From positions 1 through 9,930 of the IMG/VR virus record IMGVR_UViG_2675903504_000002: 9,930 nt of DNA, one strand, 5' to 3'. This document shows positions 1-9,930 of this stretch, piece after piece (position 1 is the stretch's first letter; every line of letters starts with the position of its first letter). The translations under genes and the position numbers were made by a program. Source of the stretch: a virus (Duplodnaviria > Heunggongvirae > Uroviricota > Caudoviricetes). The notes under the pieces are model-generated. The model saw only the letters and a list, made by a program, of their open reading frames with translations, did no database searches and was not told the origin of the DNA.

Positions 1-288
1 TCGGGCGGACCAAATGATACGTCAGTGGGAGAGATCTCACTAAAAACTGGGGATAACGCCTTAAATGGCGAAGAAACGGTCTAAATAGGCTGATTCAAGG
101 CATTTACGGGAGAAAAAATCGGCTCAAACATGAAGAAATGAAATGACTGAGTCAGCCGAGAAGAATTTCCCCGCTTATTCGCACCTTCCCTAGATGACCA
201 CATTACACATCTAAAAGGTAAACTATGCGATTTCCTTAGCAAGAAGTTTGGCGATAGCATTAGCCTGAGTGTTAATGCATTAGCTTCT

Positions 289-753
289 TTGCTTGAACAG
301 GCGTGTCGAGAAAAATCCAAGGTAAAATCCGCAGATATTATTAATTTTCCTGAACTTATTTCACGAAAGGGTTTCTCATCAGAAGCATTGAATGGTGTGC
401 TTGATTCCTTGAATGCAAGTAATAGTTTAAAGCCTGATTGGGACAAAGCTAGTCCCCTATTCAATGATCTTGGCAAAACATCGCTTCAGCTCATTATCCT
501 GCAAGCCATGTTCTCACAAGTTTGCATCGACCTTAACCAAAACAAAAAAAATCCTTCGACTGTATATCTAGAATATGCAATTAGCCTTTACGATGAGGCG
601 AGTGCTCACTCGGATTTGAAATTATATCTAACTGAAACCATGTACAAAATTGATGCACTTTGTCCAGATTATGCATTGACTTTAAAGTCAGGGAAGAAAG
701 AATGCATAGTTATTTACTCAATAATCCAGAAGCTCTTAGAGGGAGGTGAATAA
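289..753 (+). CDS. Hypothetical small protein (154 aa if TTG start at 289; true start uncertain), translationally coupled to the downstream ATPase
   Basis: Frame is open from 151 to the TAA at 751-753 with no in-frame ATG before 508. Stop overlaps the next gene's ATG (TAATG, 751-755). AT-rich like the ATPase. The antisense ORF 81..476 overlaps and is judged spurious. Confidence 0.5.
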   Translation: MLEQACREKSKVKSADIINFPELISRKGFSSEALNGVLDSLNASNSLKPDWDKASPLFNDLGKTSLQLIILQAMFSQVCIDLNQNKKNPSTVYLEYAISLYDEASAHSDLKLYLTETMYKIDALCPDYALTLKSGKKECIVIYSIIQKLLEGGE

Positions 754-2405
754 TGAAAAGCATATACTTTAAAAGTGCTCATATATTATCCCTTCGCGAT
801 AAGAAAGGATTCTCCTTCAAGTTCTCACCTGATATTAATATCATTACAGGTGAGAACGACACAGGTAAGTCTAGCTTTATTAAGAGCTTATATCATACAT
901 TAGGTGCTGATGTTCGACTGGATAAAAAGTGGAAAGAAGATAACTTTGTTTCAAAAGTTGTTATTTGTGTTAATAATCGTGACTATGCGTTTCTTCGCCA
1001 CGAAAAACGTATTTCCATTTTCGATATAACAGCAGGACAAGAGCATCACTTAGTGACCTCTAGCTCTCGTGCAGAGATTGCATTAGCTGTGCGTGATGTC
1101 TTTGATTTCAATTTGGAGCTTGTGACTAAAACTAATTTGGTTCAGGGACAAGCACAACCAGCAAGTCTTTATCTCCCTTACTATATTGATCAAGATAACG
1201 GTTGGGGGAAAGTTTTAGATTCATTTAGCAGTTTGGCTATGTATGAGGACTGGCAAAAAAATATCTTGAATTTTCATACTGGTGTAAAACCAAAGGAGTA
1301 CTATACTTTACAAGGAAAGATTAATTTAATTGATTTCGATCTTGTTGAAATCCGAACGACGTTAAAAGCTCTAAAGAGAGCTAAAAAGCGATTCGAAGAG
1401 TCATTTGGAAGAGTACTTTTCGATGTGGATGTAAAATATTATGAAGAGCTGCTGGAACGTTTCCTTCGTAAGTGCCAAGACTTACATCAAGAAGAAACAG
1501 AATACAGAATTAAGCTCATAAAAATATTATCTCTACGAGATGAATTAGTAACAGAAATAGAGGAATCAAAAAGACAGCTCGATGAAAATGATATAGATTC
1601 TTTGCTACCATCGGCAGGCTTAGAAGCAAGATATGTAGTACTTGAGAATAAAGAAAAGCTATTGCAAATCATACCAAAGTTGTATGAGGAAAAATCTGTA
1701 TATGATGATCAACTCTCTAAAATTAAAGAAGATTTGAAACAGGCTATAAGCTTAAGCTCAGAACTCAAAAACATGCTTCTGGAAGTCAAAGAGCAACTGA
1801 CTCTTCAAGACGTTATTAAGTCTCAAGCAAGTAAGCAGGTTGAGGTAACTTTCGATGAGCAAATTAACGAATTACTGCTAAAAATAGGCGAATTGGATGT
1901 TTCTAGAACTCAGCTTTCAAAAGAAATAGCAAAGTTCGAAGATAAAAAGCGAGCAAAAGAAATCAATGATAAGTTTAAAGAGTCACTGAAGTTTGCGCAA
2001 ACTGAGTTAGGTATCAAAGATCCTAAAGTTGGAACTATTCTTCAATATGGTCCGATTTCTAAGAGCGAAACAGGCAGCCGTGCTCCAAGATCAATCCTGG
2101 CTTATCACTATGCTCTTCTAAAAACAATAGAAGATAAATCGACAAGTCCTATGCTTCCAGTAGTAATTGACTCGCCTAAACAACAAGATCCAGATCCGCG
2201 TACAACAAAAAAGTTATTCGATTTATGTATTAATGGTTTATCAACTAATAGCCAGCTAATTATCGGCTCAGTTTCATTTGAAAGAGAAACGAATCAGTTT
2301 AAAACACTTATTATGACTGAAAAATACAGTCTGCTAAAATCAGAGCTTTACAATCAGGTTTATCAAGAGATTATGCCTCTTTATGAACGAGCTGCGTTAT
2401 CATAA
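753..2405 (+). CDS. SMC/Rad50-like (ABC-type) ATPase with long central coiled coil, 550 aa; candidate defence ATPase of unassigned family
   Basis: SD GGAGG at 742-746, 6 nt before ATG 753. Walker A GENDTGKS at 849-872. Residues ~190-430 are K/E/L/Q-rich and heptad-like. C-terminal signature-like SETGS (2064-2078) and Walker-B-like LPVVIDSP (2154-2177). Confidence 0.8.
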   Translation: MKSIYFKSAHILSLRDKKGFSFKFSPDINIITGENDTGKSSFIKSLYHTLGADVRLDKKWKEDNFVSKVVICVNNRDYAFLRHEKRISIFDITAGQEHHLVTSSSRAEIALAVRDVFDFNLELVTKTNLVQGQAQPASLYLPYYIDQDNGWGKVLDSFSSLAMYEDWQKNILNFHTGVKPKEYYTLQGKINLIDFDLVEIRTTLKALKRAKKRFEESFGRVLFDVDVKYYEELLERFLRKCQDLHQEETEYRIKLIKILSLRDELVTEIEESKRQLDENDIDSLLPSAGLEARYVVLENKEKLLQIIPKLYEEKSVYDDQLSKIKEDLKQAISLSSELKNMLLEVKEQLTLQDVIKSQASKQVEVTFDEQINELLLKIGELDVSRTQLSKEIAKFEDKKRAKEINDKFKESLKFAQTELGIKDPKVGTILQYGPISKSETGSRAPRSILAYHYALLKTIEDKSTSPMLPVVIDSPKQQDPDPRTTKKLFDLCINGLSTNSQLIIGSVSFERETNQFKTLIMTEKYSLLKSELYNQVYQEIMPLYERAALS

Positions 2406-2435
2406 TCTGATCATTTATATGGGAACACGCTCATC

Positions 2436-2459
2436 ACTATGAGTGTGTCTCCTCATAGT
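2436..2459. other. Perfect 8-bp stem hairpin (ACTATGAG / CTCATAGT, 8-nt loop) 31 nt after the ATPase stop
   Basis: Exact inverted repeat read from the sequence. Lacks a following T-run, so not a canonical intrinsic terminator. Confidence 0.4.
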
Positions 2460-2537
2460 TACGCTAGCTATCAATTAAATTAGCCTATTCAATTGACCAG
2501 CTCTTCATTGATCAACAATAAGTGCTATTAGCTACTT

Positions 2538-2597
2538 CAGCTTTCGGCACAGAGCGGACGAGATGGCTGGTTTGAAGGTCCGCTGTGAGCGAAGAGC
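2538..2597. other. Two adjacent stem-loops in the convergent intergenic region
   Basis: CACAG(AG)CGGAC ... GTCCGCTGTG (10 bp with a 2-nt bulge, 18-nt loop), then GCGAAG-AGCGGAA-CTTCGC (6-bp stem). No adjacent U-tract on either strand. Confidence 0.4.
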
Positions 2598-2706
2598 GGA
2601 ACTTCGCGATTAATCTCGCAGTCAAATAGTTGCATTACTCACATTACGGCGTATTAATCAATGGAGAGCAGATCAATAAGAACAGAAATAAACATTCCAA
2701 GCATTA

Positions 2707-3258
2707 CTACAAGTCTGACATTAGAGCCAAACACATAATCCGTTCCCAGTGATTCACAAAAGGCGAATTATTGATTATTGTTTGAAATATAAGGTATTTA
2801 GCAGCATTTTTATCTACGGAGATTGGTAGTACTGAGTTATATAGAGCTAAAAGCACAACTAACCTCGCACCAGCTTCTTTAGAGTATCTTAAAGATAAAT
2901 CAAAATCGTTAAAATGTTTTTCCACTCTTTGTTTATGTGCATTATCCCAATCAGCAGGTGGCGAAACAAAATACTCAATAACTCCAGGCTCATCATTTTT
3001 GCCAACCAAGTATCTAGCCGATATCCACTGTTCATCATAATAACGGCTATCGTCTAAATAGGGATGTATTATCTGTTCTGCTTCATTTCTTGCAAAAGTT
3101 TCCCCTTTACCATCCATATTACAATCTCGACAAGCTGGCACAAGATTAACAGGCAATATAGAAAACTGAGGATAGTGAGCTTTAGGCAAATAATGATCTA
3201 AATTTCGAGGTCGCCCAATCCCACCACAAAATGGGCATTTTTCATTAGCAGCAGTCAT
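2707..3258 (-). CDS. HNH-family endonuclease, 183 aa
   Basis: N-terminal CPFCG...LDHYLPK...N...CRDCN pattern (about 3115..3237 on +), i.e. two CxxC pairs flanking a DH dyad as in McrA/HNH nucleases. AT-rich. No strong SD upstream of ATG 3258. Confidence 0.8.
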   Translation of the reverse strand: MTAANEKCPFCGGIGRPRNLDHYLPKAHYPQFSILPVNLVPACRDCNMDGKGETFARNEAEQIIHPYLDDSRYYDEQWISARYLVGKNDEPGVIEYFVSPPADWDNAHKQRVEKHFNDFDLSLRYSKEAGARLVVLLALYNSVLPISVDKNAAKYLIFQTIINNSPFVNHWERIMCLALMSDL

Positions 3259-3333
3259 CAGGGCATCATAAATATTTCGAGCAGGCTTTTTCTTCCCAAC
3301 AACATAATTTCCATTTATGTAAACTGATTAATG

Positions 3334-3365
3334 AAAACAATAAGTTAGAGTAAAAACAATAAGTT
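3334..3365. repeat. Tandem direct repeat AAAACAATAAGTT x2 (3334-3346, 3353-3365) between int stop and HNH start
   Basis: 13/13 identity, 19 bp period, followed by GGTGGTCAGTGGTGG just before the int stop. Confidence 0.7.
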
Positions 3366-3385
3366 GGGTTGGTGGTCAGTGGTGG

Positions 3386-4441
3386 TTATGACGGGGTAAT
3401 GCCAACCGCTGCCGCCACTTTGTCGCCACTTGGCAGCGTTGCCAGAGGATTGAAACGGAGCGCCGTTTCCAGATGATCCGGTGCCAGATGTGCGTAACGC
3501 ATAGTCATTTTTATATCGTGGTGTCCGAGAATTTTTTGTAAGGCCAGAATGTTTCCACCCGACATCATGAAGTGCGCCGCAAACGTATGGCGCAGAACGT
3601 GTGTGAGTTGACCGCGAGGGAGCACGATAGACGTTTTTTCCATTACGGATAAAAATTGAAAATAGCAGTCTGTGAAGAAATTGAATCCATCAAGCGCCAT
3701 GATCTCTTCATAAAGCTCTTTACTGATAGGGATGCTTCTGTTTTTCTTCCCCTTCGTTCTTACAAAGGTAATTCGGTATTTAGTCACCTGTGATCGGGTA
3801 AGGTTTATTGCTTCTCGCCAGCGTGCGCCTGTGCTTAAGCATATCTTGACTACCAGCGCCAGAATTGGGTCCTGACGTTTGCAATCAGCCAGCAGTTCAA
3901 CAATCTGCTCATGGGTAAGCCATGCCATCTCTTTTTCTGCGATGGTGAATTTTCGCATGTTCTCCAGTGGGTTTGGATACGACCATTCGCCCAGGCGGGA
4001 TAGTTCGCTAAAAACACTACTTAGATAGCTTTGCTCCAGGTTAATGGTGACCGGGCTGGCTCCTTTCTTCCATTTCTCGCTGAAGTAGATCTCACCGGTC
4101 AGGCGTTTATCTCGATAGTGGGCAAACATTTTAGAGGTGAGATTGGTTGCAAGAGGATTGCCTAGAGCGTCAACCATCAGCAGCAATTTGTCATAGACAT
4201 GCTGCCCAGCAGTCAGAGATTTACCATGTAATTTGAACCATAGCTCAACCACGTCTTTCAGGGTTCGACGATCCACTGATTCGCCCAGCCAGGGCTTTGA
4301 TTCGGTTTCTTCCATCGTGTGACGCTCAAAAGCCAGAGCTTCGCCTTTGGTGGCGAATTGTTTACGCACACGACGCCCACTTCGTCCGGCGGGGTAACAT
4401 TCGCAAAGCCATTTCCCTGTGGTGAGTTTTCGTACTGCCAT
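3386..4441 (-). CDS. int: Tyrosine site-specific recombinase (phage integrase, P2/186-type), 351 aa
   Basis: C-terminal catalytic region LSTGARWREA ... HVLRHTFAAHFMMSGGNILALQKILGHHDIKMTMRYAHLAP contains the R...H-x-x-R...Y signature. N-terminus MAVRKL...GRSGRRVRKQF resembles P2 Int as I recall it. Confidence 0.95.
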   Translation of the reverse strand: MAVRKLTTGKWLCECYPAGRSGRRVRKQFATKGEALAFERHTMEETESKPWLGESVDRRTLKDVVELWFKLHGKSLTAGQHVYDKLLLMVDALGNPLATNLTSKMFAHYRDKRLTGEIYFSEKWKKGASPVTINLEQSYLSSVFSELSRLGEWSYPNPLENMRKFTIAEKEMAWLTHEQIVELLADCKRQDPILALVVKICLSTGARWREAINLTRSQVTKYRITFVRTKGKKNRSIPISKELYEEIMALDGFNFFTDCYFQFLSVMEKTSIVLPRGQLTHVLRHTFAAHFMMSGGNILALQKILGHHDIKMTMRYAHLAPDHLETALRFNPLATLPSGDKVAAAVGITPS

Positions 4442-4466
4442 AAAAAAGCCCTCATATCAGAGGGCT
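4442..4466 (-). terminator. Candidate rho-independent terminator downstream of the OLD-like gene; its 3' arm contains the int Shine-Dalgarno
   Basis: Minus-strand RNA reads AGCCCUC-UGAUAU-GAGGGCU then U5-6, directly followed by the int AUG (4441). The 7-bp GC-rich stem's GAGGG lies 7 nt from the AUG. Confidence 0.5.
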
Positions 4467-4511
4467 AAATTTAACTGTATATTTGACCAGTAGTCAATGT
4501 ATGGTTTTTAC

Positions 4512-6500
4512 TTAAAAAACATTCTTATCCCCGTGGAAAAAACGTGCAACGTTCAATAGCCAGTCGGGGGTTTTTATTTCATTTGAATTTGCTAGTATTT
4601 CTAAATATTTTTCGCAAAATTCATTTTTTTTTCCTGGTAATTCGAAATAATCCTCAATAGCTTTTTTTTCTGTAATGTTAAGATTCAAAGCGCCTCCCGA
4701 TACTGAAGACTCCATTAACTGTGGGGTTTCCATAAAGGACAAACTAGTTTCTCCTTTAGTGTAAAGCATTTTCAGAGTTTCTACGTAGAAATCAGCATTA
4801 AGAGACTGCTCAATTTCTGTAGGTGGATAAACTCGATCATCAGTAACTTTAACAAGGCTTATATTAGATAAGTCTTTATCGAGCAAGAGTCTTCTTATTT
4901 TTATACTTGGTATTGTATCTGTAGCATCATATGGACTATATTTGTGATCTGTATCTAATAATAATAATACTTTTCCTGAGATTGTTGCTTTGCGATCCTC
5001 TAACGCCATAACGAGTAAATTATATATTTTTTTTACTGTAGGGGAGCCACCGACGGATAAAACTATTAGTTTCTCAATGTTTTCATAATCCAAGTGAGCG
5101 GAAATATATTTTCTATCAGTTTTTCCTTCGCACAATATCCAGTTATAATTATTTCCAGATGTTATTGAATAAACAATTGATTGTGCTAAGTCGTGATTGC
5201 TTTTCATTTCTAAAACGTCAAGGTAAGAGCCATTTGACTCTTTTGCTAGTTCCTTTAATTCATCCTTGTAGTTTTCCAGATCGAGTGCTTTGATGTATGT
5301 TTGAGAGGGGGAAATATATATGGCTGTACCTGAGCCTGTAACAGGTAAAAAACCATACCAATGAGTTGTACAAATAGTTTGTATGCCTAGGTCGCTAATT
5401 TTTTTTATTTTATCAAATTGATTAAAACATGATGTGGCATGTAAGGATAATTCAGGTTCATCAACAGCAAGAATTGTTGAGTGCTGAGATTTTTGTGGAT
5501 TATGTTTTAAGAAATTGGTAGCAAGATCTAGCAATGCTTTTCTTTTTTCTCCTGAGCTTAAATTTTGCACAGGGGTATCTTTATTAACATCATCAATATG
5601 ATGTAATATTTTATCACTAAAATATGATTCAATTATTTTAGATATCATATGACGTTGAGTGAAACTATTTTGTCGCTGAGATGGTTTTTTAAATTGATAT
5701 CGCCCCTCAAGCTTTGTAGTTAATTGTCTAATAAAATCATTTAAGTGCGAATTTATTGCTGTAATATCCTTTTTCTTAATGATTTTACTGATTTTTTGTT
5801 GGAGATTTTCACCTAATAAAGACTGTAATAAATCGCTTTCAATCCTTGAGTATTCGGATGTGGTTATTTCTGCAGGTAGGTAAATATAATTATAGATATC
5901 CTTAATTGTTATTAATAGCTTAGGTAGTATATTGTTAAAATGATATTTTTTATTATTCGTCGAACTATTTTCATTTGCGAGATCATCAATTTGCAATCGA
6001 TAATCATCTATAGATTCGAAAATTGACATGTAGGGGCGAGGAATATCATTTGCAGTTTCTTTTATTATCCCAAGGGGAATTAATAAATATTCATCTGAAG
6101 AATATTTGTATTCTAGTTGCTTCCTGTGTGATATAAATTTCTCAGCTATAGGACGTTGCAATGTATTAAAAACTTCACTTTCTATTTGCCAAGTGATATC
6201 GCTTACGATTTCTAATGCTTTGTATAGGGAATTATTTATCTTTAGCTTGTTTTTATTTATTAAATAAATTGGCACAATGAATGGTTCTCGAGTATCGAAA
6301 CCTTGACTGCGCGCTTCATTGTTGATATCAAGTCTATTGATATCAGTTTTATTTAGTACAATATCTAATGCTTGTAATATTGAGCTTTTCCCGACACCAT
6401 TTTCACCAATGAGCCAAGAGGATTTATTGTTTAAAGTGAGAGGGATATAATGTTGATTTTTGAAATTCTTGAAATTTCGTAAAATAACACCAATAATCAT
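4512..6500 (-). CDS. OLD-family ATPase-TOPRIM nuclease (class-1 OLD-like single-gene architecture; a fused PARIS AriA-AriB-like protein is an alternative), 662 aa
   Basis: N-terminal ABC/AAA_15-type Walker A LIGENGVGKSS (6384..6407). C-terminal TOPRIM motifs ILCEGKTD (5115..5138) and LLLLDTDH (DxD at 4947..4955). SD AAGGA 5-6 nt upstream of ATG 6500, 20 bp after the cI stop. Very AT-rich (about 28% G+C in a hand-counted 60-nt sample). Confidence 0.85.
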   Translation of the reverse strand: MIIGVILRNFKNFKNQHYIPLTLNNKSSWLIGENGVGKSSILQALDIVLNKTDINRLDINNEARSQGFDTREPFIVPIYLINKNKLKINNSLYKALEIVSDITWQIESEVFNTLQRPIAEKFISHRKQLEYKYSSDEYLLIPLGIIKETANDIPRPYMSIFESIDDYRLQIDDLANENSSTNNKKYHFNNILPKLLITIKDIYNYIYLPAEITTSEYSRIESDLLQSLLGENLQQKISKIIKKKDITAINSHLNDFIRQLTTKLEGRYQFKKPSQRQNSFTQRHMISKIIESYFSDKILHHIDDVNKDTPVQNLSSGEKRKALLDLATNFLKHNPQKSQHSTILAVDEPELSLHATSCFNQFDKIKKISDLGIQTICTTHWYGFLPVTGSGTAIYISPSQTYIKALDLENYKDELKELAKESNGSYLDVLEMKSNHDLAQSIVYSITSGNNYNWILCEGKTDRKYISAHLDYENIEKLIVLSVGGSPTVKKIYNLLVMALEDRKATISGKVLLLLDTDHKYSPYDATDTIPSIKIRRLLLDKDLSNISLVKVTDDRVYPPTEIEQSLNADFYVETLKMLYTKGETSLSFMETPQLMESSVSGGALNLNITEKKAIEDYFELPGKKNEFCEKYLEILANSNEIKTPDWLLNVARFFHGDKNVF

Positions 6501-6520
6501 TTTTTGTCCTTTAAAATTAA

Positions 6521-7111
6521 TTATTTACAGGTCATAATTACTTTAGCGATGATATTAACATCACTGATATTGCACTCTATTTTTTTTGATTTTGACTCTA
6601 GCATTATGCGGTTATTAGGTAACCTCATTAATTCTCGAACAGAATATATACCGTCAATGGCAATCAACCATAACCCATCATCAATCTCATCCACACCTCG
6701 TCTCACGACATAAGTTATATGCTCATGCTCAAGAGCTGAGATATCTTTTAGGTCATTTGGCAATAGTGATAAATCAAAAATTAAATAGCCATTATCAATC
6801 AGTTTGCCATCGATAATTTTCTCTCTGGTCAGGCTTACAACATGCGATTTTGCATCCACATACATGGGGCCTTCAGCTGCGGATAGCCAACGAAGTGAAA
6901 TACCTGTTTCTAACGCACATTGAATTATCCAATCAGCGGGGAATGTATCTCTCATATATCGATTAGCTAACGTGCTTTTAGAAACACCAAGATGTTCAGC
7001 CAAAGCCTGTCGTGTCGTAAAGCCATAAGCTTCGACTAATCGCTCAATCGCAGCCTTACCACCTTTATTGGGATTTATTTTGATCTCACTTGGGTACTTT
7101 GATGTTGACAT
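6521..7111 (-). CDS. cI: Phage 186-type CI immunity repressor (N-terminal HTH, C-terminal oligomerisation domain), 196 aa
   Basis: HTH-like segment GFTTRQALAEHLGVSKSTLANRY. Size and divergent position opposite the apl/cII-like genes match the phage 186 switch layout (P2 C is much smaller). Start codon overlaps the -35 of the rightward promoter. Confidence 0.8.
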   Translation of the reverse strand: MSTSKYPSEIKINPNKGGKAAIERLVEAYGFTTRQALAEHLGVSKSTLANRYMRDTFPADWIIQCALETGISLRWLSAAEGPMYVDAKSHVVSLTREKIIDGKLIDNGYLIFDLSLLPNDLKDISALEHEHITYVVRRGVDEIDDGLWLIAIDGIYSVRELMRLPNNRIMLESKSKKIECNISDVNIIAKVIMTCK

Positions 7112-7158
7112 ATCTCTTTTGCGATCCTAGTATCACTTTTGTTCCCATTTGGGTACTT
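7090..7158. promoter_or_regulatory. Two exact copies of TTGGGTACTT (7090-7099, 7149-7158) bracketing the pR-like promoter; candidate operator or regulator binding sites
   Basis: 10/10 direct repeat read from the sequence, 59 bp apart, flanking the -35/-10. Confidence 0.4.
7105..7133 (+). promoter_or_regulatory. Candidate sigma70 rightward lytic promoter (pR-like): -35 TTGACA, 17-bp spacer, -10 TAGTAT
   Basis: TTGACA at 7105-7110 and TAGTAT at 7128-7133. The -35 overlaps the cI start codon (complement of CAT at 7109-7111). Oriented toward apl/cII. Confidence 0.5.
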
Positions 7159-7206
7159 GTCACGATTACTACAGGCTCACCACAAGCCAATAGGAGATGT
7201 TGCATC

Positions 7207-7428
7207 ATGACCCCTAACATTTCAATAACTCTGAATACGCCACATGTCACAATTGAGCGTTATAGCGAACTTACTGGTCTTTCAATCGACACAATTAACG
7301 ATATGCTGGCTGACGGTCGCATCCCTCGGCATCGCCTTCGGAAAGACAAGAAAAGAGAAAAGGTGATGATCAACCTTGCTGCTCTTACCGTTGATGCACT
7401 TACTGATTGCAATGTTGTATTCAACTAG
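7207..7428 (+). CDS. apl: Apl/Cox-type HTH excisionase / transcriptional regulator, 73 aa
   Basis: SD AGGAG at 7192-7196, 10 nt before ATG 7207. The track's 7090 start runs through the promoter and across the cI start, so it is implausible. HTH-like [24 protein letters not shown]. First gene of the rightward operon, divergent from cI. Confidence 0.6.
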
Positions 7429-7460
7429 TTCCATTTTGGGATACATCAGGGGTGTCGACC

Positions 7461-7970
7461 ATGTTTGATTACCAAGTTTCCAAACATCCACATTTTGATG
7501 AAGCCTGTCGTGCATTCGCACTGCGCCACAACCTGGTGCAACTGGCAGAACGTGCAGGCATGAATGTGCAGATTCTGCGGAACAAGCTGAACCCAGCTCA
7601 ACCTCATTTATTAACCGCACCAGATATCTGGCTACTTACCGATCTGACTGAAGATTCAACGCTGGTAGACGGTTTTCTGGCACAGATTCATTGTCTGCCA
7701 TGTGTACCGATTAATGAGGTGGCAAAAGAGAAACTGCCACATTACGTCATGAGTGCAACCGCAGAGATCGGGCGTGTTGCTGCAGGTGCGGTATCTGGCG
7801 ATGTAAAAACCAGTGCAGGTCGTCGTAATGCTATCAGCAGCATTAACTCTGTAACACGACTGATGGCGTTGGCTGCTGTTTCATTGCAGGCCCGTTTACA
7901 GGCTAACCCTGCGATGGCGAGTGCAGTTGATACCGTGGCTGGCCTCGGTGCTTCATTCGGTTTGCTGTGA
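7461..7970 (+). CDS. cII: Phage 186-type CII lysogeny-establishment activator, 169 aa
   Basis: Starts at internal ATG 7461 ([19 protein letters not shown]...); the upstream extension from 7407 overlaps apl. HTH-like [18 protein letters not shown]. Length and position after apl match 186 CII. Confidence 0.8.
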
Positions 7971-7977
7971 GGTACTT

Positions 7978-8274
7978 ATGCTGACGAAAGAACCATCATT
8001 TGCATCGCTGCTGGTAAAGCAAAGCCCGGCAATGCACTACGGTCACGGCTGGATCATGGGTGAGGATGGAAAACGCTGGCATCCATGTCATTCACAAGAT
8101 GAATTGCTGTCTGAATTGACCACGAGGAAACGGAGAAAGTCAAAATGTATGCAGCGGAAAGTGAAGTGGTTTATCAGTTTCGTTACAGAGGGGAGAGTTA
8201 TTCAGTACCTGAAGATGATTTGCTCTGTTGTTATCCGTCGTTGTCGGGCGATGGCAGTTACTTTTTCACGCTAA
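7978..8274 (+). CDS. Hypothetical early protein (98 aa as drawn; 3' portion doubtful)
   Basis: ATG 7978 is 5 nt after a GAGG overlapping the cII stop. The last ~40 codons overlap the next ORF and read like out-of-frame sequence (C/R/W-rich). Confidence 0.45.
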   Translation: MLTKEPSFASLLVKQSPAMHYGHGWIMGEDGKRWHPCHSQDELLSELTTRKRRKSKCMQRKVKWFISFVTEGRVIQYLKMICSVVIRRCRAMAVTFSR

Positions 8275-8369
8275 AAGATGGGACGTTTTTACGGGGAGAG
8301 CAGGTTAAAGAGACGATACGAAAAAATGTATCTCCTCTTGAACGTTACCGTAATAACAAACAACGATAG
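8145..8369 (+). CDS. Hypothetical early protein, 74 aa
   Basis: SD GGAG at 8132-8135, 9 nt before ATG 8145. Ordinary amino-acid composition. Overlaps the 3' end of the previous ORF in a different frame. Confidence 0.5.
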   Translation: MYAAESEVVYQFRYRGESYSVPEDDLLCCYPSLSGDGSYFFTLKDGTFLRGEQVKETIRKNVSPLERYRNNKQR

Positions 8370-8391
8370 TTGCGTTTTGGGGATATGAATT

Positions 8392-8733
8392 ATGGCAATT
8401 AATGGCGCTGCGGCGACTGTTCCATTAAGCCCCGGTGAACGCCTGAATGGACTTAATCACATTGCGGAGCTAAGGGCGAAAGTTTTTGGCCTGAATATTG
8501 AGTCAGAGCTTGAGCGGTTTATTAAAGATATGCGTGATCCACGGGATATCAATAACGAACAAAATAAACGGGCACTGGCTGCTATATTCTTTATGGCAAA
8601 AATTCCAGCTGAACGTCATAGCATCAGCATTAATGAGCTGACCACTGACGAAAAGCGGGAGTTGATTAAAGCAATGAATCATTTTCGTGCAGTGGTGAGC
8701 TTATTTCCCAGACGGCTAACCATGCCGAATTAA
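8392..8733 (+). CDS. Hypothetical phage early protein, 113 aa
   Basis: ORF with G-rich SD-like GGGGA at 8379-8383. Co-directional with the early operon; no motif recognised. Confidence 0.6.
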   Translation: MAINGAAATVPLSPGERLNGLNHIAELRAKVFGLNIESELERFIKDMRDPRDINNEQNKRALAAIFFMAKIPAERHSISINELTTDEKRELIKAMNHFRAVVSLFPRRLTMPN

Positions 8734-8800
8734 CCAACTAATGAAATTAATGGCGTAAACCCGCCGGGTATCCCTTTATCTAAATTCAGGAGAATTGATT

Positions 8801-9034
8801 ATGCGTAATATTGAAACCCTCACGACTAAAACCGGACCGGATGATGCAGGGCTTAATATTTTACTGACAGAGGCTCGTCTGGAAGAACGCCGGGCAAGGG
8901 CTGAAGCAATGGCAGCTCGCCTTGATAGCCTGGCGTGTCATATCACATCCCGCCAGCTAAACCATGTCGAAGCAGCAGAACTGCTGCGTGTGACCGCTGA
9001 AGCAATCCAGAACGAAGCGCAGGAGATCCACTGA
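8801..9034 (+). CDS. Hypothetical phage protein, 77 aa
   Basis: SD AGGAG at 8788-8792, 8 nt before ATG 8801 (preferred over the TTG at 8795). Stop overlaps the start of the next gene (TGATG at 9032-9036). Confidence 0.6.
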   Translation: MRNIETLTTKTGPDDAGLNILLTEARLEERRARAEAMAARLDSLACHITSRQLNHVEAAELLRVTAEAIQNEAQEIH

Positions 9035-9261
9035 TGGCTGATGCAATGGATCTCGTACAGCAGCGAGTTGAAGAAGAACGCCAGCGTCATATCCGTGCTG
9101 CCCGTGCCAAAACGCCGGGCGTGTCCCGCGTGCTTTGCGTTGAGTGTGAAGCGCCAATTCCGCCAGCACGCCGCCGTGCCATTCCGGGTGTGCAACTTTG
9201 CATTACCTGTCAGGAAATCGCAGAGCTGAAAGGCAAACATTACAACGGAGGTGCTGTATGA
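9034..9261 (+). CDS. TraR/DksA-family C4 zinc-finger protein (likely RNA polymerase secondary-channel regulator), 75 aa
   Basis: CVECEAPIPPARRRAIPGVQLCITCQ gives two CxxC pairs with TraR-like spacing and conserved PGV. SD AGGAG at 9021-9025. Stop overlaps the dam start. Confidence 0.85.
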   Translation: MADAMDLVQQRVEEERQRHIRAARAKTPGVSRVLCVECEAPIPPARRRAIPGVQLCITCQEIAELKGKHYNGGAV

Positions 9262-9930
9262 GCACCATCCTGAAATGGGCGGGAAATAAAACCGCCATTA
9301 TGTCCGAACTGAAAAAACATCTTCCTGCTGGTCCGCGACTGGTTGAACCTTTCGCGGGTTCCTGTGCAGTGATGATGGAGACGGATTACCCCAGCTATCT
9401 TGTTGCGGATATTAATCCTGATTTAATCAACCTCTATAAAAAGGTTGCTGCTGATTGTGAGGCGTTTATATCTCGTGCCAGAGCTTTATTTGAGGAAGCA
9501 AACAGAGAGGTGGCTTATTACAACATAAGGCAGGAGTTTAATTACTCCACTGAAATTACTGATTTCATGAAAGCGGTATATTTTCTGTATCTCAATCGTC
9601 ATGGTTACCGTGGGTTATGTCGTTATAACAAGAGCGAGCATTTCAACATTCCATACGGTAATTATAAAAATCCGTATTTCCCTGAAAAAGAAATTCGCGC
9701 ATTTGCAGAGAAAGCCCAGCGAGCAACGTTTATCTGCGCCAGCTTTGATGAAACGCTGGCGATGCTGCAGGTGGGGGATGTGGTGTATTGCGATCCGCCT
9801 TATGACGGTACGTTTTCCGGCTATCACACTGATGGTTTCACTGAAGATGACCAGTATCACCTGGCATCTGTTCTTGAATATCGATCATCAGAAGGTCATC
9901 CAGTCATTGTTTCTAAGGAAGGTGCGAATA
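9258..9930 (+). CDS. dam: DNA adenine (GATC-type, Dam-family) N6-methyltransferase, 3' end truncated by the window edge
   Basis: SD GGAGG at 9247-9251. N-terminal LKWAGNK and catalytic DPPY (9792..9803). Close resemblance to E. coli Dam along the whole visible length ([31 protein letters not shown]). No stop before 9930. Confidence 0.9.

Follow-up and report, generated by a model that had tools for sequence, protein, structure and literature searches.

The DNA analysed here, referred to as the window, is a stretch of 9,930 nucleotides (nt) corresponding to positions 1 to 9,930 of the IMG/VR virus record IMGVR_UViG_2675903504_000002. Its phage genes are of the 186 type and encode CI, CII (CP76 family), Fil and a tyrosine integrase; CI, CII and Fil are homologous to the phage 186 proteins. 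On the minus strand, the cI repressor gene is followed by an OLD-like gene and then by the integrase gene, int. The spacer between the stop codon of the OLD-like gene (TAA, 4514-4512) and the int ATG is 70 nt long (4442-4511) and contains a hairpin immediately in front of int. An earlier note, made from the sequence alone, had treated this hairpin as the only content of the spacer, and had described it as a terminator whose 3' arm carries the ribosome-binding site of int. The hairpin is indeed located in the spacer, but it fills only 20 of the 70 nt, and the remainder is a conserved promoter and operator region. The model that best accounts for the data, and which we consider moderately probable, is that the hairpin forms the downstream part of an 84-nt int control module, in which RNA arriving from upstream would be terminated or silenced and RNA started at a promoter within the module (P_int) would be translated. 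The features of int and the hairpin are as follows.

3386-4441, minus strand: int, encoding a tyrosine integrase of 351 amino acids (aa), with its ATG at 4441-4439 (Pfam Int_N and Phage_integrase; RefSeq phage integrase).
4442-4447, minus strand: U-tract of six U, the first of which closes the stem; candidate terminator tail and spacer between the Shine-Dalgarno (SD) sequence and the AUG (sequence, scan).
4447-4453, minus strand: hairpin 3' arm, GAGGGCT, which holds the int SD sequence GAGGG (4453-4449); all SD bases are paired in the minimum free energy (MFE) fold.
4454-4459, minus strand: hairpin loop, TGATAT, 6 nt (sequence, scan, fold).
4460-4466, minus strand: hairpin 5' arm, AGCCCTC (anti-SD), which pairs and covaries with the 3' arm.

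Read along the minus strand, the region is 5'-TTAAATTT AGCCCTC TGATAT GAGGGCT TTTTTATGGCA, with the two arms paired around the loop TGATAT; in longer context it reads ...CAGTTAAATTT-AGCCCTC-TGATAT-GAGGGCT-TTTTT-ATGGCA. The G+C-rich 7-bp hairpin followed by a U-run and the int AUG, as proposed in the earlier note, is thus borne out by the sequence, the consensus scan and the fold, and the SD sequence, 7 nt ahead of the ATG, is buried entirely in the 3' arm as the note had stated. The scan ranked the hairpin first among the terminator-like sites of the window (7 pairs, 5 of them G-C, with a loop of 6). However, 10 such sites were found in the whole window versus 7.3 +/- 3.0 in shuffled sequences, so that the existence of the hairpin alone is not significant, and its local fold is therefore the better evidence. 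In the folding-energy calculation that the note had suggested, the hairpin is the MFE structure, with -13.3 kcal/mol and z = -5.4 for a 36-nt segment (identical in the related loci L008 and L083) and z = -2.8 in a 101-nt context. Its anatomy agrees with that of an intrinsic terminator, with a G+C-rich stem in the 5-12 bp range, a short loop, and the U-tract right behind the stem on the strand that also carries cI and the OLD-like gene.

Other functions of this segment were also considered. A bidirectional terminator was rejected for this window: the scan did not call the stem on the plus strand, where AAATTTAA comes next. In relatives with a second stem sequence (type B, see below), A and T tracts flank the stem on both sides. 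An out-of-frame ATG at 4455 in the loop, which would start an open reading frame (ORF) of 65 aa (4258-4455, minus strand), is missing in type B stems and is probably spurious. A search of positions 4440-4511 (minus strand) against Rfam 15 returned nothing above the gathering score (RyhB with 26 bits versus 55, Trp leader with 20.6 versus 41); the four sub-threshold hits were all driven by the terminator-like shape and give no evidence for a small RNA. No tRNA genes were found in the window.

The genes that precede int in the leftward operon are the following.

6521-7111, minus strand: 186-type CI repressor, the first gene of the leftward (lysogenic) operon (Pfam Phage_CI_repr and Phage_CI_C).
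4512-6500, minus strand: OLD-like or AriA-like AAA_15 ATPase, the cargo in a variable slot between cI and int (Pfam, PADLOC).

The "OLD-like" label used in the earlier note is reasonable for this AAA_15 ATPase, which matches the PADLOC profiles for Old (E = 1.5e-17) and AriA (E = 2.3e-23). A 401-nt query across the junction of int and the spacer matched 1119 of 5426 complete E. coli genomes; in all but 8 of the 1119, the match is confined to int and the spacer and stops at about window position 4508-4517. The genes upstream of the same spacer vary by prophage and include an AAA ATPase, a KAP NTPase, HEPN plus GmrSD genes, hypothetical genes and a 63-aa ORF. As judged by sequence comparison, the spacer is an 84-nt module (4439-4522, minus strand) that is kept upstream of this integrase clade whatever gene separates cI and int. 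The 63-aa ORF is the sole cI-int cargo in the commonest relative of the module (L006, positions 3121-3312; type B stem); it has a signal-peptide-like N-terminus and several cysteines, and may encode a small secreted protein or lipoprotein.

For the comparisons described below, 77 genome loci and 80 viral loci encoding relatives of this Int were gathered and their upstream regions were read. The part of the module upstream of the hairpin contains the elements of a predicted promoter, P_int, and a LexA box.

4492-4497, minus strand: -35 hexamer of predicted P_int, TTGACT (consensus scan); TTGAC is kept in most relatives.
4473-4492, minus strand: predicted LexA (SOS) box TACTGGTCAAATATACAGTT, of the form CTG-N10-CAG; it takes up the interval separating the -35 and -10 hexamers (position weight matrix, 19.9 bits).
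4468-4474, minus strand: -10 hexamer of predicted P_int, TTAAAT (17-nt spacer) or TAAATT (18-nt spacer) (consensus scan).

The combination TTGACT-18-TAAATT matches the sigma-70 consensus at 9 of 12 positions. The A and T positions of the -10 hexamer are nearly invariant in both alignments of the relatives (A1 and A2), even though neither the LexA box nor the stem includes them. The LexA box score lies inside the range spanned by the 23 E. coli boxes on which the approximate matrix was trained (13.1-23.8 bits, median 19.7); the runner-up site in the window reaches 5.1 bits and the best site in 200 shuffles 19.6 bits. A first control was the 186 p95 (tum) promoter, where the matrix picks precisely the LexA site that is annotated (25.6 bits). 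In a second control, the phage vB_EcoM-813R9, exactly two strong boxes were found, one upstream of a tum/DinI-like operon (23.1 bits) and one upstream of int (22.6 bits). The former box (21634-21668 in locus L164) has a weaker neighbor of 10.9 bits and precedes a two-gene operon ending in a DinI-like "SOS induction modulator", which is the position of p95-tum in 186. This arrangement suggests that this phage family is SOS-inducible via a Tum-like antirepressor.

A box of 15-25 bits is located 47-54 nt ahead of the ATG in 120 of 149 related loci. The remaining 29 score at most 5.2 bits, such that the distribution is bimodal, and many of them are 186-type loci in which cI abuts int. The 120 boxes represent 38 distinct sequences, in which CTG and CAG are essentially fixed and the center is variable. 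The box thus overlaps the core promoter and is conserved in orthologous loci, and positions 4473-4492 are predicted to be a LexA box of the gammaproteobacterial type. Two other candidate elements in this region were set aside. The palindrome TTGAC-N5-GTCAA (4497-4483, minus strand), which overlaps the -35 hexamer and the left LexA half and is paired by RNAfold, is specific to this sequence type, is not conserved and is regarded as incidental; a resemblance to the IHF consensus is confined to Rahnella-type sequences and was rejected as a general explanation.

At the upstream edge of P_int lies an inverted repeat of the kind bound by CII in phage 186. The relevant features, including the window's own reference copy at cII, are listed below.

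4497-4503, minus strand: right half-site, CATACAT, 12 nt from the left half-site and abutting the -35 hexamer; half-sites as at 186 pE and the window pE.
4516-4522, minus strand: left half-site of the 186-CII-type operator, ATGTTTT, overlapping the last codons of the OLD-like gene (6/7 match to ATGT(A/T)TG).
7461-7487, minus strand: pE-type CII operator at the start of cII, ATGTTTG-N13-CAAACAT (half-sites and N13 as in the annotated 186 site).
7461-7970, plus strand: cII, an activator of the 186 CP76 family (Pfam Phage_CP76, E = 1.1e-41; RefSeq CII family protein).

Of 59 distinct relatives, nearly all share the repeat ATGT(A/T)TG-N12/13-CA(A/T)ACAT, while the flanking cargo is unrelated. The window copy matches at 13 of the 14 half-site positions, and many relatives match at all 14; the gap is 12 nt in 33 distinct sequences and 13 nt in 23. 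The distance from the right half-site to the -10 hexamer is 22-23 nt, compared with 21 nt at 186 pE and 22 nt at the window pE, and thus lies in the 21-23 nt range, with cII in the same phage. The center of the right half-site (4500) is 38-39 nt upstream of the predicted P_int start, as at 186 pE. When about 3.5 kb upstream of int was scanned, most loci contained only the pE and/or P_int copy at 12/14 or better, and a few loci showed either one more, weak hit or no hit. In the entire 38.9-kb phage record, the pE and P_int copies are the only ones. The window copy therefore resembles a CII site and would be expected to work like one; strict membership in the pE type is not established.

The single heptamer ATGTWTG occurs 12 times in the window versus 4.1 +/- 2.1 expected (none of 200 shuffles reaches 12). 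Among these copies, only 4497-4503 and 7461-7487 form operator-like pairs. Late-promoter sites of the Ogr/B type are TGT-N12-ACA; such a site was rejected here because the repeat would be TGT-N18-ACA. In Rahnella-type relatives, int is located downstream of gpD and an Ogr/B-like zinc-finger gene instead of cI. In one of these (L036, Rahnella rivi), a second repeat, ATGTATG-N13-CATACAA, is found just upstream of the ogr-like gene (repeat at 3076-3102, gene region 3129-3362); this copy might serve CII in repressing the late activator, or might be a site for something else.

Two geometric estimates agree on where transcription from P_int would begin.

4458-4462, minus strand: predicted P_int transcription start zone, most likely 4461-4462 (from the -10 hexamer and the pE-like geometry).

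Counting 7 nt past the -10 hexamer leads to 4461-4462, and analogy with 186 pE, where the center of the right half-site is about 38 nt upstream of the annotated promoter end, leads to about 4462. On both estimates, transcription is predicted to start within the hairpin's 5' arm or immediately past it. In all lineages, 0-3 nt separate the -10 hexamer from the stem, and the type B stem even overlaps the hexamer; therefore, most of the 5' arm is upstream of the predicted +1. The consequences for translation were estimated from the opening energy of the segment around the AUG (positions -13 to +4). For the window, this energy is 14.6 kcal/mol in read-through RNA versus 6.3-7.1 kcal/mol in RNA from the predicted +1. 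Among 21 representatives, the P_int RNA requires 2-8 kcal/mol, and the read-through RNA 12-21 kcal/mol where the hairpin is stable and 7.7-10.5 kcal/mol in weak-hairpin lineages. The probability that GAGGG is unpaired in the read-through RNA is 0.0; that is, sequence from upstream pairs with the ribosome-binding site of the recombinase gene.

Burial of the SD sequence is a recurrent property of the relatives. Single-sequence folds of 45 distinct segments extending from the LexA box to the ATG gave z-scores of -2.5 or below in most cases, with the SD in the 3' arm, and the SD-burying hairpin is reached with about ten unrelated stem sequences. Representative stems (5' arm / 3' arm) are listed below.

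This window (type A): AGCCCTC / GAGGGCT
Type B: ATGCTCTC / GAGGGCAT
Kluyvera: CTCTCCTAA / TTAGGAGAG
Yersinia: CCCCCTT / AAGGGGG
Serratia: GTAGCCC / GGGCTAC
Rahnella: CACATTCTC / GAGAATGTG
Ewingella: CCTCCATT / AATGGAGG

Further stems exist beyond those tabulated, and the stem of L132 carries a clean G-C to A-U swap. The stems of distant hairpins were misaligned in an alignment made with MAFFT only (A1), and a covariance model (R1), to which 53 distinct sequences were aligned, was used together with the single-sequence folds instead. In the model-fitted alignment, 96.9% of the cells are paired versus 79.5% in shuffles, and slid controls reach at most 63.2%. Six of the seven pairs change on both sides, with 49 double-change cells versus 10.6 expected, a number reached in none of 500 shuffles.

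The U-run, in contrast to the buried SD, is found mainly with the E. coli/Klebsiella-type (A and B) stems. The Rahnella, Yersinia, Serratia and Brenneria types lack it, and in some of them the stem abuts the ATG. Since these distant relatives keep an SD-burying hairpin without a U-run, it is SD enclosure, and not termination, that is conserved: as read from the alignments, enclosure is the shared property and termination a lineage-specific addition. In Pantoea (L038), Mixta, Winslowiella, Acerihabitans and Pectobacterium (L029), the SD hairpin is weak or missing, and a separate canonical terminator is located just upstream of the CII site. In L035, L038, L043, L048, L040 and L029, a G+C-rich terminator abuts the left CII-type half-site, 84-134 nt upstream of int, and L035 keeps a clear SD hairpin as well.

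These features can be combined into a model for the control of int. RNAs begun at pL/pE and extended through cI and the OLD-like gene would carry both arms, and the hairpin would form. Together with the U-tract, it would act as an intrinsic terminator for these upstream transcripts, and in any RNA that reads through, the int SD would be buried and the RNA translationally silent for int. Int would instead be supplied from the dedicated promoter P_int (TTGACT-17/18-TTAAAT/TAAATT), with the LexA box as its spacer and the 186-CII-type operator at its upstream edge. Starting at about 4461-4462, its mRNA would lack the anti-SD arm and have a leader of about 20 nt and a much more open ribosome-binding site. 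Int would be made when CII is present, i.e. while lysogeny is being established and, in addition, once pR is derepressed. It would likewise be made when LexA is cleaved upon SOS induction, to serve excision together with Apl; since LexA cleavage would also free the Tum-like antirepressor, the result would be a coherent SOS excision program. No Int would arise from the constitutive lysogenic or defense-gene transcript. The earlier note's suggestion of a hairpin that holds integrase at a low level in the lysogen is plausible, because SD burial is conserved and the ribosome-binding site of read-through RNA is predicted to be costly to open. Its proposal of a combined terminator and translation occluder holds for the terminator anatomy and for SD burial, which is maintained by compensatory changes in distant relatives; the simple attenuator reading does not hold as well. 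With the predicted start site inside the 5' arm, the element makes better sense as a means of telling two kinds of transcript apart than as a plain attenuator.

Several points weigh against this model. Promoters that depend on an activator do not usually have a -35 hexamer so close to the consensus. Pyrimidines (C4462/T4461) occupy the predicted +1 positions, with G4458 as the first purine downstream. The short P_int leader is predicted to be less than fully open, as its SD can pair weakly with int codons 12-17 (probability unpaired 0.05-0.5). The gap of the window operator is 12 nt versus 13 nt at 186 pE, departing from the N13 spacing (20 bp center to center), and its left half-site matches at 6 of 7 positions. 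CII binding may be weaker with the shorter gap; Shearwin and Egan (2000) reportedly found that a 1-bp change in spacing lowers CII affinity. The Rahnella-type module follows ogr and not cI, and the model does not account for the similar inverted repeat upstream of ogr. In the close family, the stem is 98.1% paired, with one double change only. The best covariation figures come from a structure-fitted alignment and so lean towards the structure, with the single-sequence folds agreeing independently. The LexA matrix, derived from E. coli boxes and validated on two phage sites, is approximate. More generally, the observations consist of sequence features, conservation, covariation and predicted energies, and promoter activity, the start site, binding of LexA and CII, termination and the translational effect are predictions built on them.

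The alternative that survives best, although we consider it unlikely, places the hairpin within the int mRNA itself. P_int or another promoter would then start upstream of 4466, so that every int transcript would carry the hairpin, which would be a constitutive translational attenuator, a 5' stabilizer or the target of an opening factor (e.g. in autoregulation by Int). The conservation of the hairpin and its buried SD, the pyrimidines at the predicted +1 and the partial SD pairing in the truncated leader speak for it. However, with the stem beginning 0-3 nt after the -10 hexamer, or overlapping it in type B, a start before the 5' arm would require an unnaturally short distance between -10 and +1. 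TACAGT, which was tried as an alternative -10 and rejected, is only 12 nt from TTGAC, and the pE-like CII geometry independently gives a +1 near 4462. In addition, a hairpin with a U-tract in the only int mRNA of the window would terminate that mRNA.

It is improbable, in our estimate, that CTG-N10-CAG and/or the ATGTWTG repeat are bound by proteins other than LexA and CII, or are relics of the recombination that swaps cargo. The N12 spacing, compared with N13 at pE, and the inverted repeat upstream of ogr in Rahnella-type phages would fit such a view. Against it, the LexA box scores within the range of the E. coli training boxes and is as strong as the box of the tum-like operon in the same phage family, and the repeat is confined to pE and P_int in the 38.9-kb record at the same threshold. 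A relic would not hold CTG and CAG invariant while the center of the box varies.

The earlier note implied that int has no promoter of its own, with Int coming solely from cI-OLD read-through and damped further by SD occlusion. The terminator anatomy with the SD in the stem agrees with this, and phage 186 does express int from the cI operon (PMC7708051). Nevertheless, we regard this reading as very improbable. It is a poor fit to a spacer with a conserved sigma-70 promoter, LexA box and 186-CII-type operator, since it leaves unexplained why 120 of 149 loci have these elements (TTGAC, box, -10 and repeat) at a constant spacing from the ATG; moreover, an RNA with an opening cost of 14.6 kcal/mol would be poorly translated, and there would be almost no source of Int for integration or excision. 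Least probable of all is that the hairpin is merely a terminator of the cargo or lysogenic operon and its overlap with the SD an accident of compactness: its terminator features are good in the window and in all type A/B relatives, and a G-rich SD readily makes the 3' arm of a G+C-rich stem, but the hairpins of Rahnella, Yersinia, Serratia, Ewingella and Brenneria, wholly different in sequence, enclose the SD without a U-run and in some cases abut the ATG.

The prophage portion of the window (3311-9916) shares 99.985% identity with a prophage of E. coli CE0021a. The region 1-3310 lies outside the prophage and is unlike the rcdA-ybjJ surroundings of that otherwise identical E. coli prophage. 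It contains a Lamassu system, represented by the C-terminal part of LmuA (289-753) and by LmuB (753-2405; PADLOC E = 0), and a truncated PDC-M01B homologue (2707-3258, minus strand) covering profile positions 101-277 of 285. The junction between prophage and host is near 3311, and the prophage thus adjoins another defense locus.

If the model is correct, defense genes could be swapped in an insulated slot between cI and int without upsetting the control of integration and excision, and excision would be a direct output of the SOS response, parallel to the Tum antirepressor. This would explain how a defense hotspot can exist inside the lysogenic operon without int depending on the inserted cargo or its promoters. 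The model predicts a second, direct SOS input, namely the supply of Int, to the induction of 186-like prophages, which bears on antibiotic-triggered excision in E. coli and Klebsiella. It would also be a compact example of a promoter nested in a terminator, where the origin of a transcript decides its translation, and the 84-nt module could possibly be useful as a synthetic insulator part. The broader claim is that this is a widespread and apparently undescribed module of Enterobacterales 186-like prophages, occurring in about 1 in 5 complete E. coli genomes, in which a CII-activated, LexA-repressed promoter is joined to a terminator/anti-SD hairpin that is bypassed by the promoter's own start. 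Such a module would uncouple int from the lysogenic operon, insulate the defense-gene slot and make excision a direct SOS output parallel to Tum; we judge this claim to be evenly balanced between right and wrong.

A full-text literature search found no account of a LexA- or CII-controlled int promoter, or of the hairpin, in P2/186-like phages. A cI-int hotspot in Vibrio K139-like phages (Rousset 2022, PMC9122126) and a P2 hotspot between integrase and primase (PMC13586616) have been described, and regulation is not discussed in either paper. Salmonella transcriptome and SOS papers deal with strains that lack this prophage type. In P2, int is also downstream of the immunity repressor gene (C), with a non-coding spacer of about 115 nt containing a hairpin; however, that hairpin (GGTGGCT/AGCCACC) has neither an SD nor a U-run, and a comparison of the C-int spacer revealed no LexA box, TTGAC promoter or CII-type repeat. 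In 186, int is expressed from the cI operon (PMC7708051), i.e. from pL/pE, and the cI stop and int start overlap, leaving no spacer, promoter, LexA box or hairpin. The half-sites of the module are nevertheless those of the annotated pE CII site, the operator-promoter geometry matches, and the LexA box is of the same type as that of p95; the difference is that both operator types are combined ahead of int here.

Integron intI promoters are repressed by LexA (PMC3108266, PMC3948777). In these promoters, as is predicted for the present module, a LexA box covers the promoter of a tyrosine recombinase gene and ties recombination to SOS. Integrons are a different type of element, however, and intI has no CII operator and no SD-burying terminator hairpin.

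In phage lambda, PI is the CII-activated int promoter, and int expression differs between PL and PI transcripts as a result of sib retroregulation, which involves 3' processing by RNase III. As is predicted for the module, int has its own CII-dependent promoter apart from the main operon, and the promoter from which a transcript originates decides the output of Int. The activation of int by lambda CII is documented (PMC7708051). The CII proteins are unrelated, and the discrimination would occur at the 5' end here, by SD occlusion and termination, in contrast to the 3' RNase III processing of lambda; PI also lacks a LexA box.

The logic of the hairpin is that of a protection known from transposons. 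Davis, Simons and Kleckner (Cell 1985) are said to have found that IS10/Tn10 (and IS50) are shielded from external promoters by "fold-back inhibition". In IS10/IS50, as in the module, external transcripts carry upstream sequence that pairs with the recombinase ribosome-binding site. The transposase's own promoter starts within or after that sequence, such that its mRNA escapes, and P_int is predicted to do likewise. The purpose would also be the same, namely to block activation of the recombinase by foreign transcription. The systems differ in that the gene here is a phage tyrosine integrase and not a transposase, without sequence homology, that the 5' arm occupies the discriminator and the initial transcribed region, that the hairpin appears to double as a terminator in this lineage, and that the internal promoter is apparently controlled by LexA and CII. 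By analogy with these systems, the element is best described as a new and apparently undescribed combination built on a known regulatory principle, joining the logic of IS10/IS50 to a lambda-PI-like promoter under SOS control.

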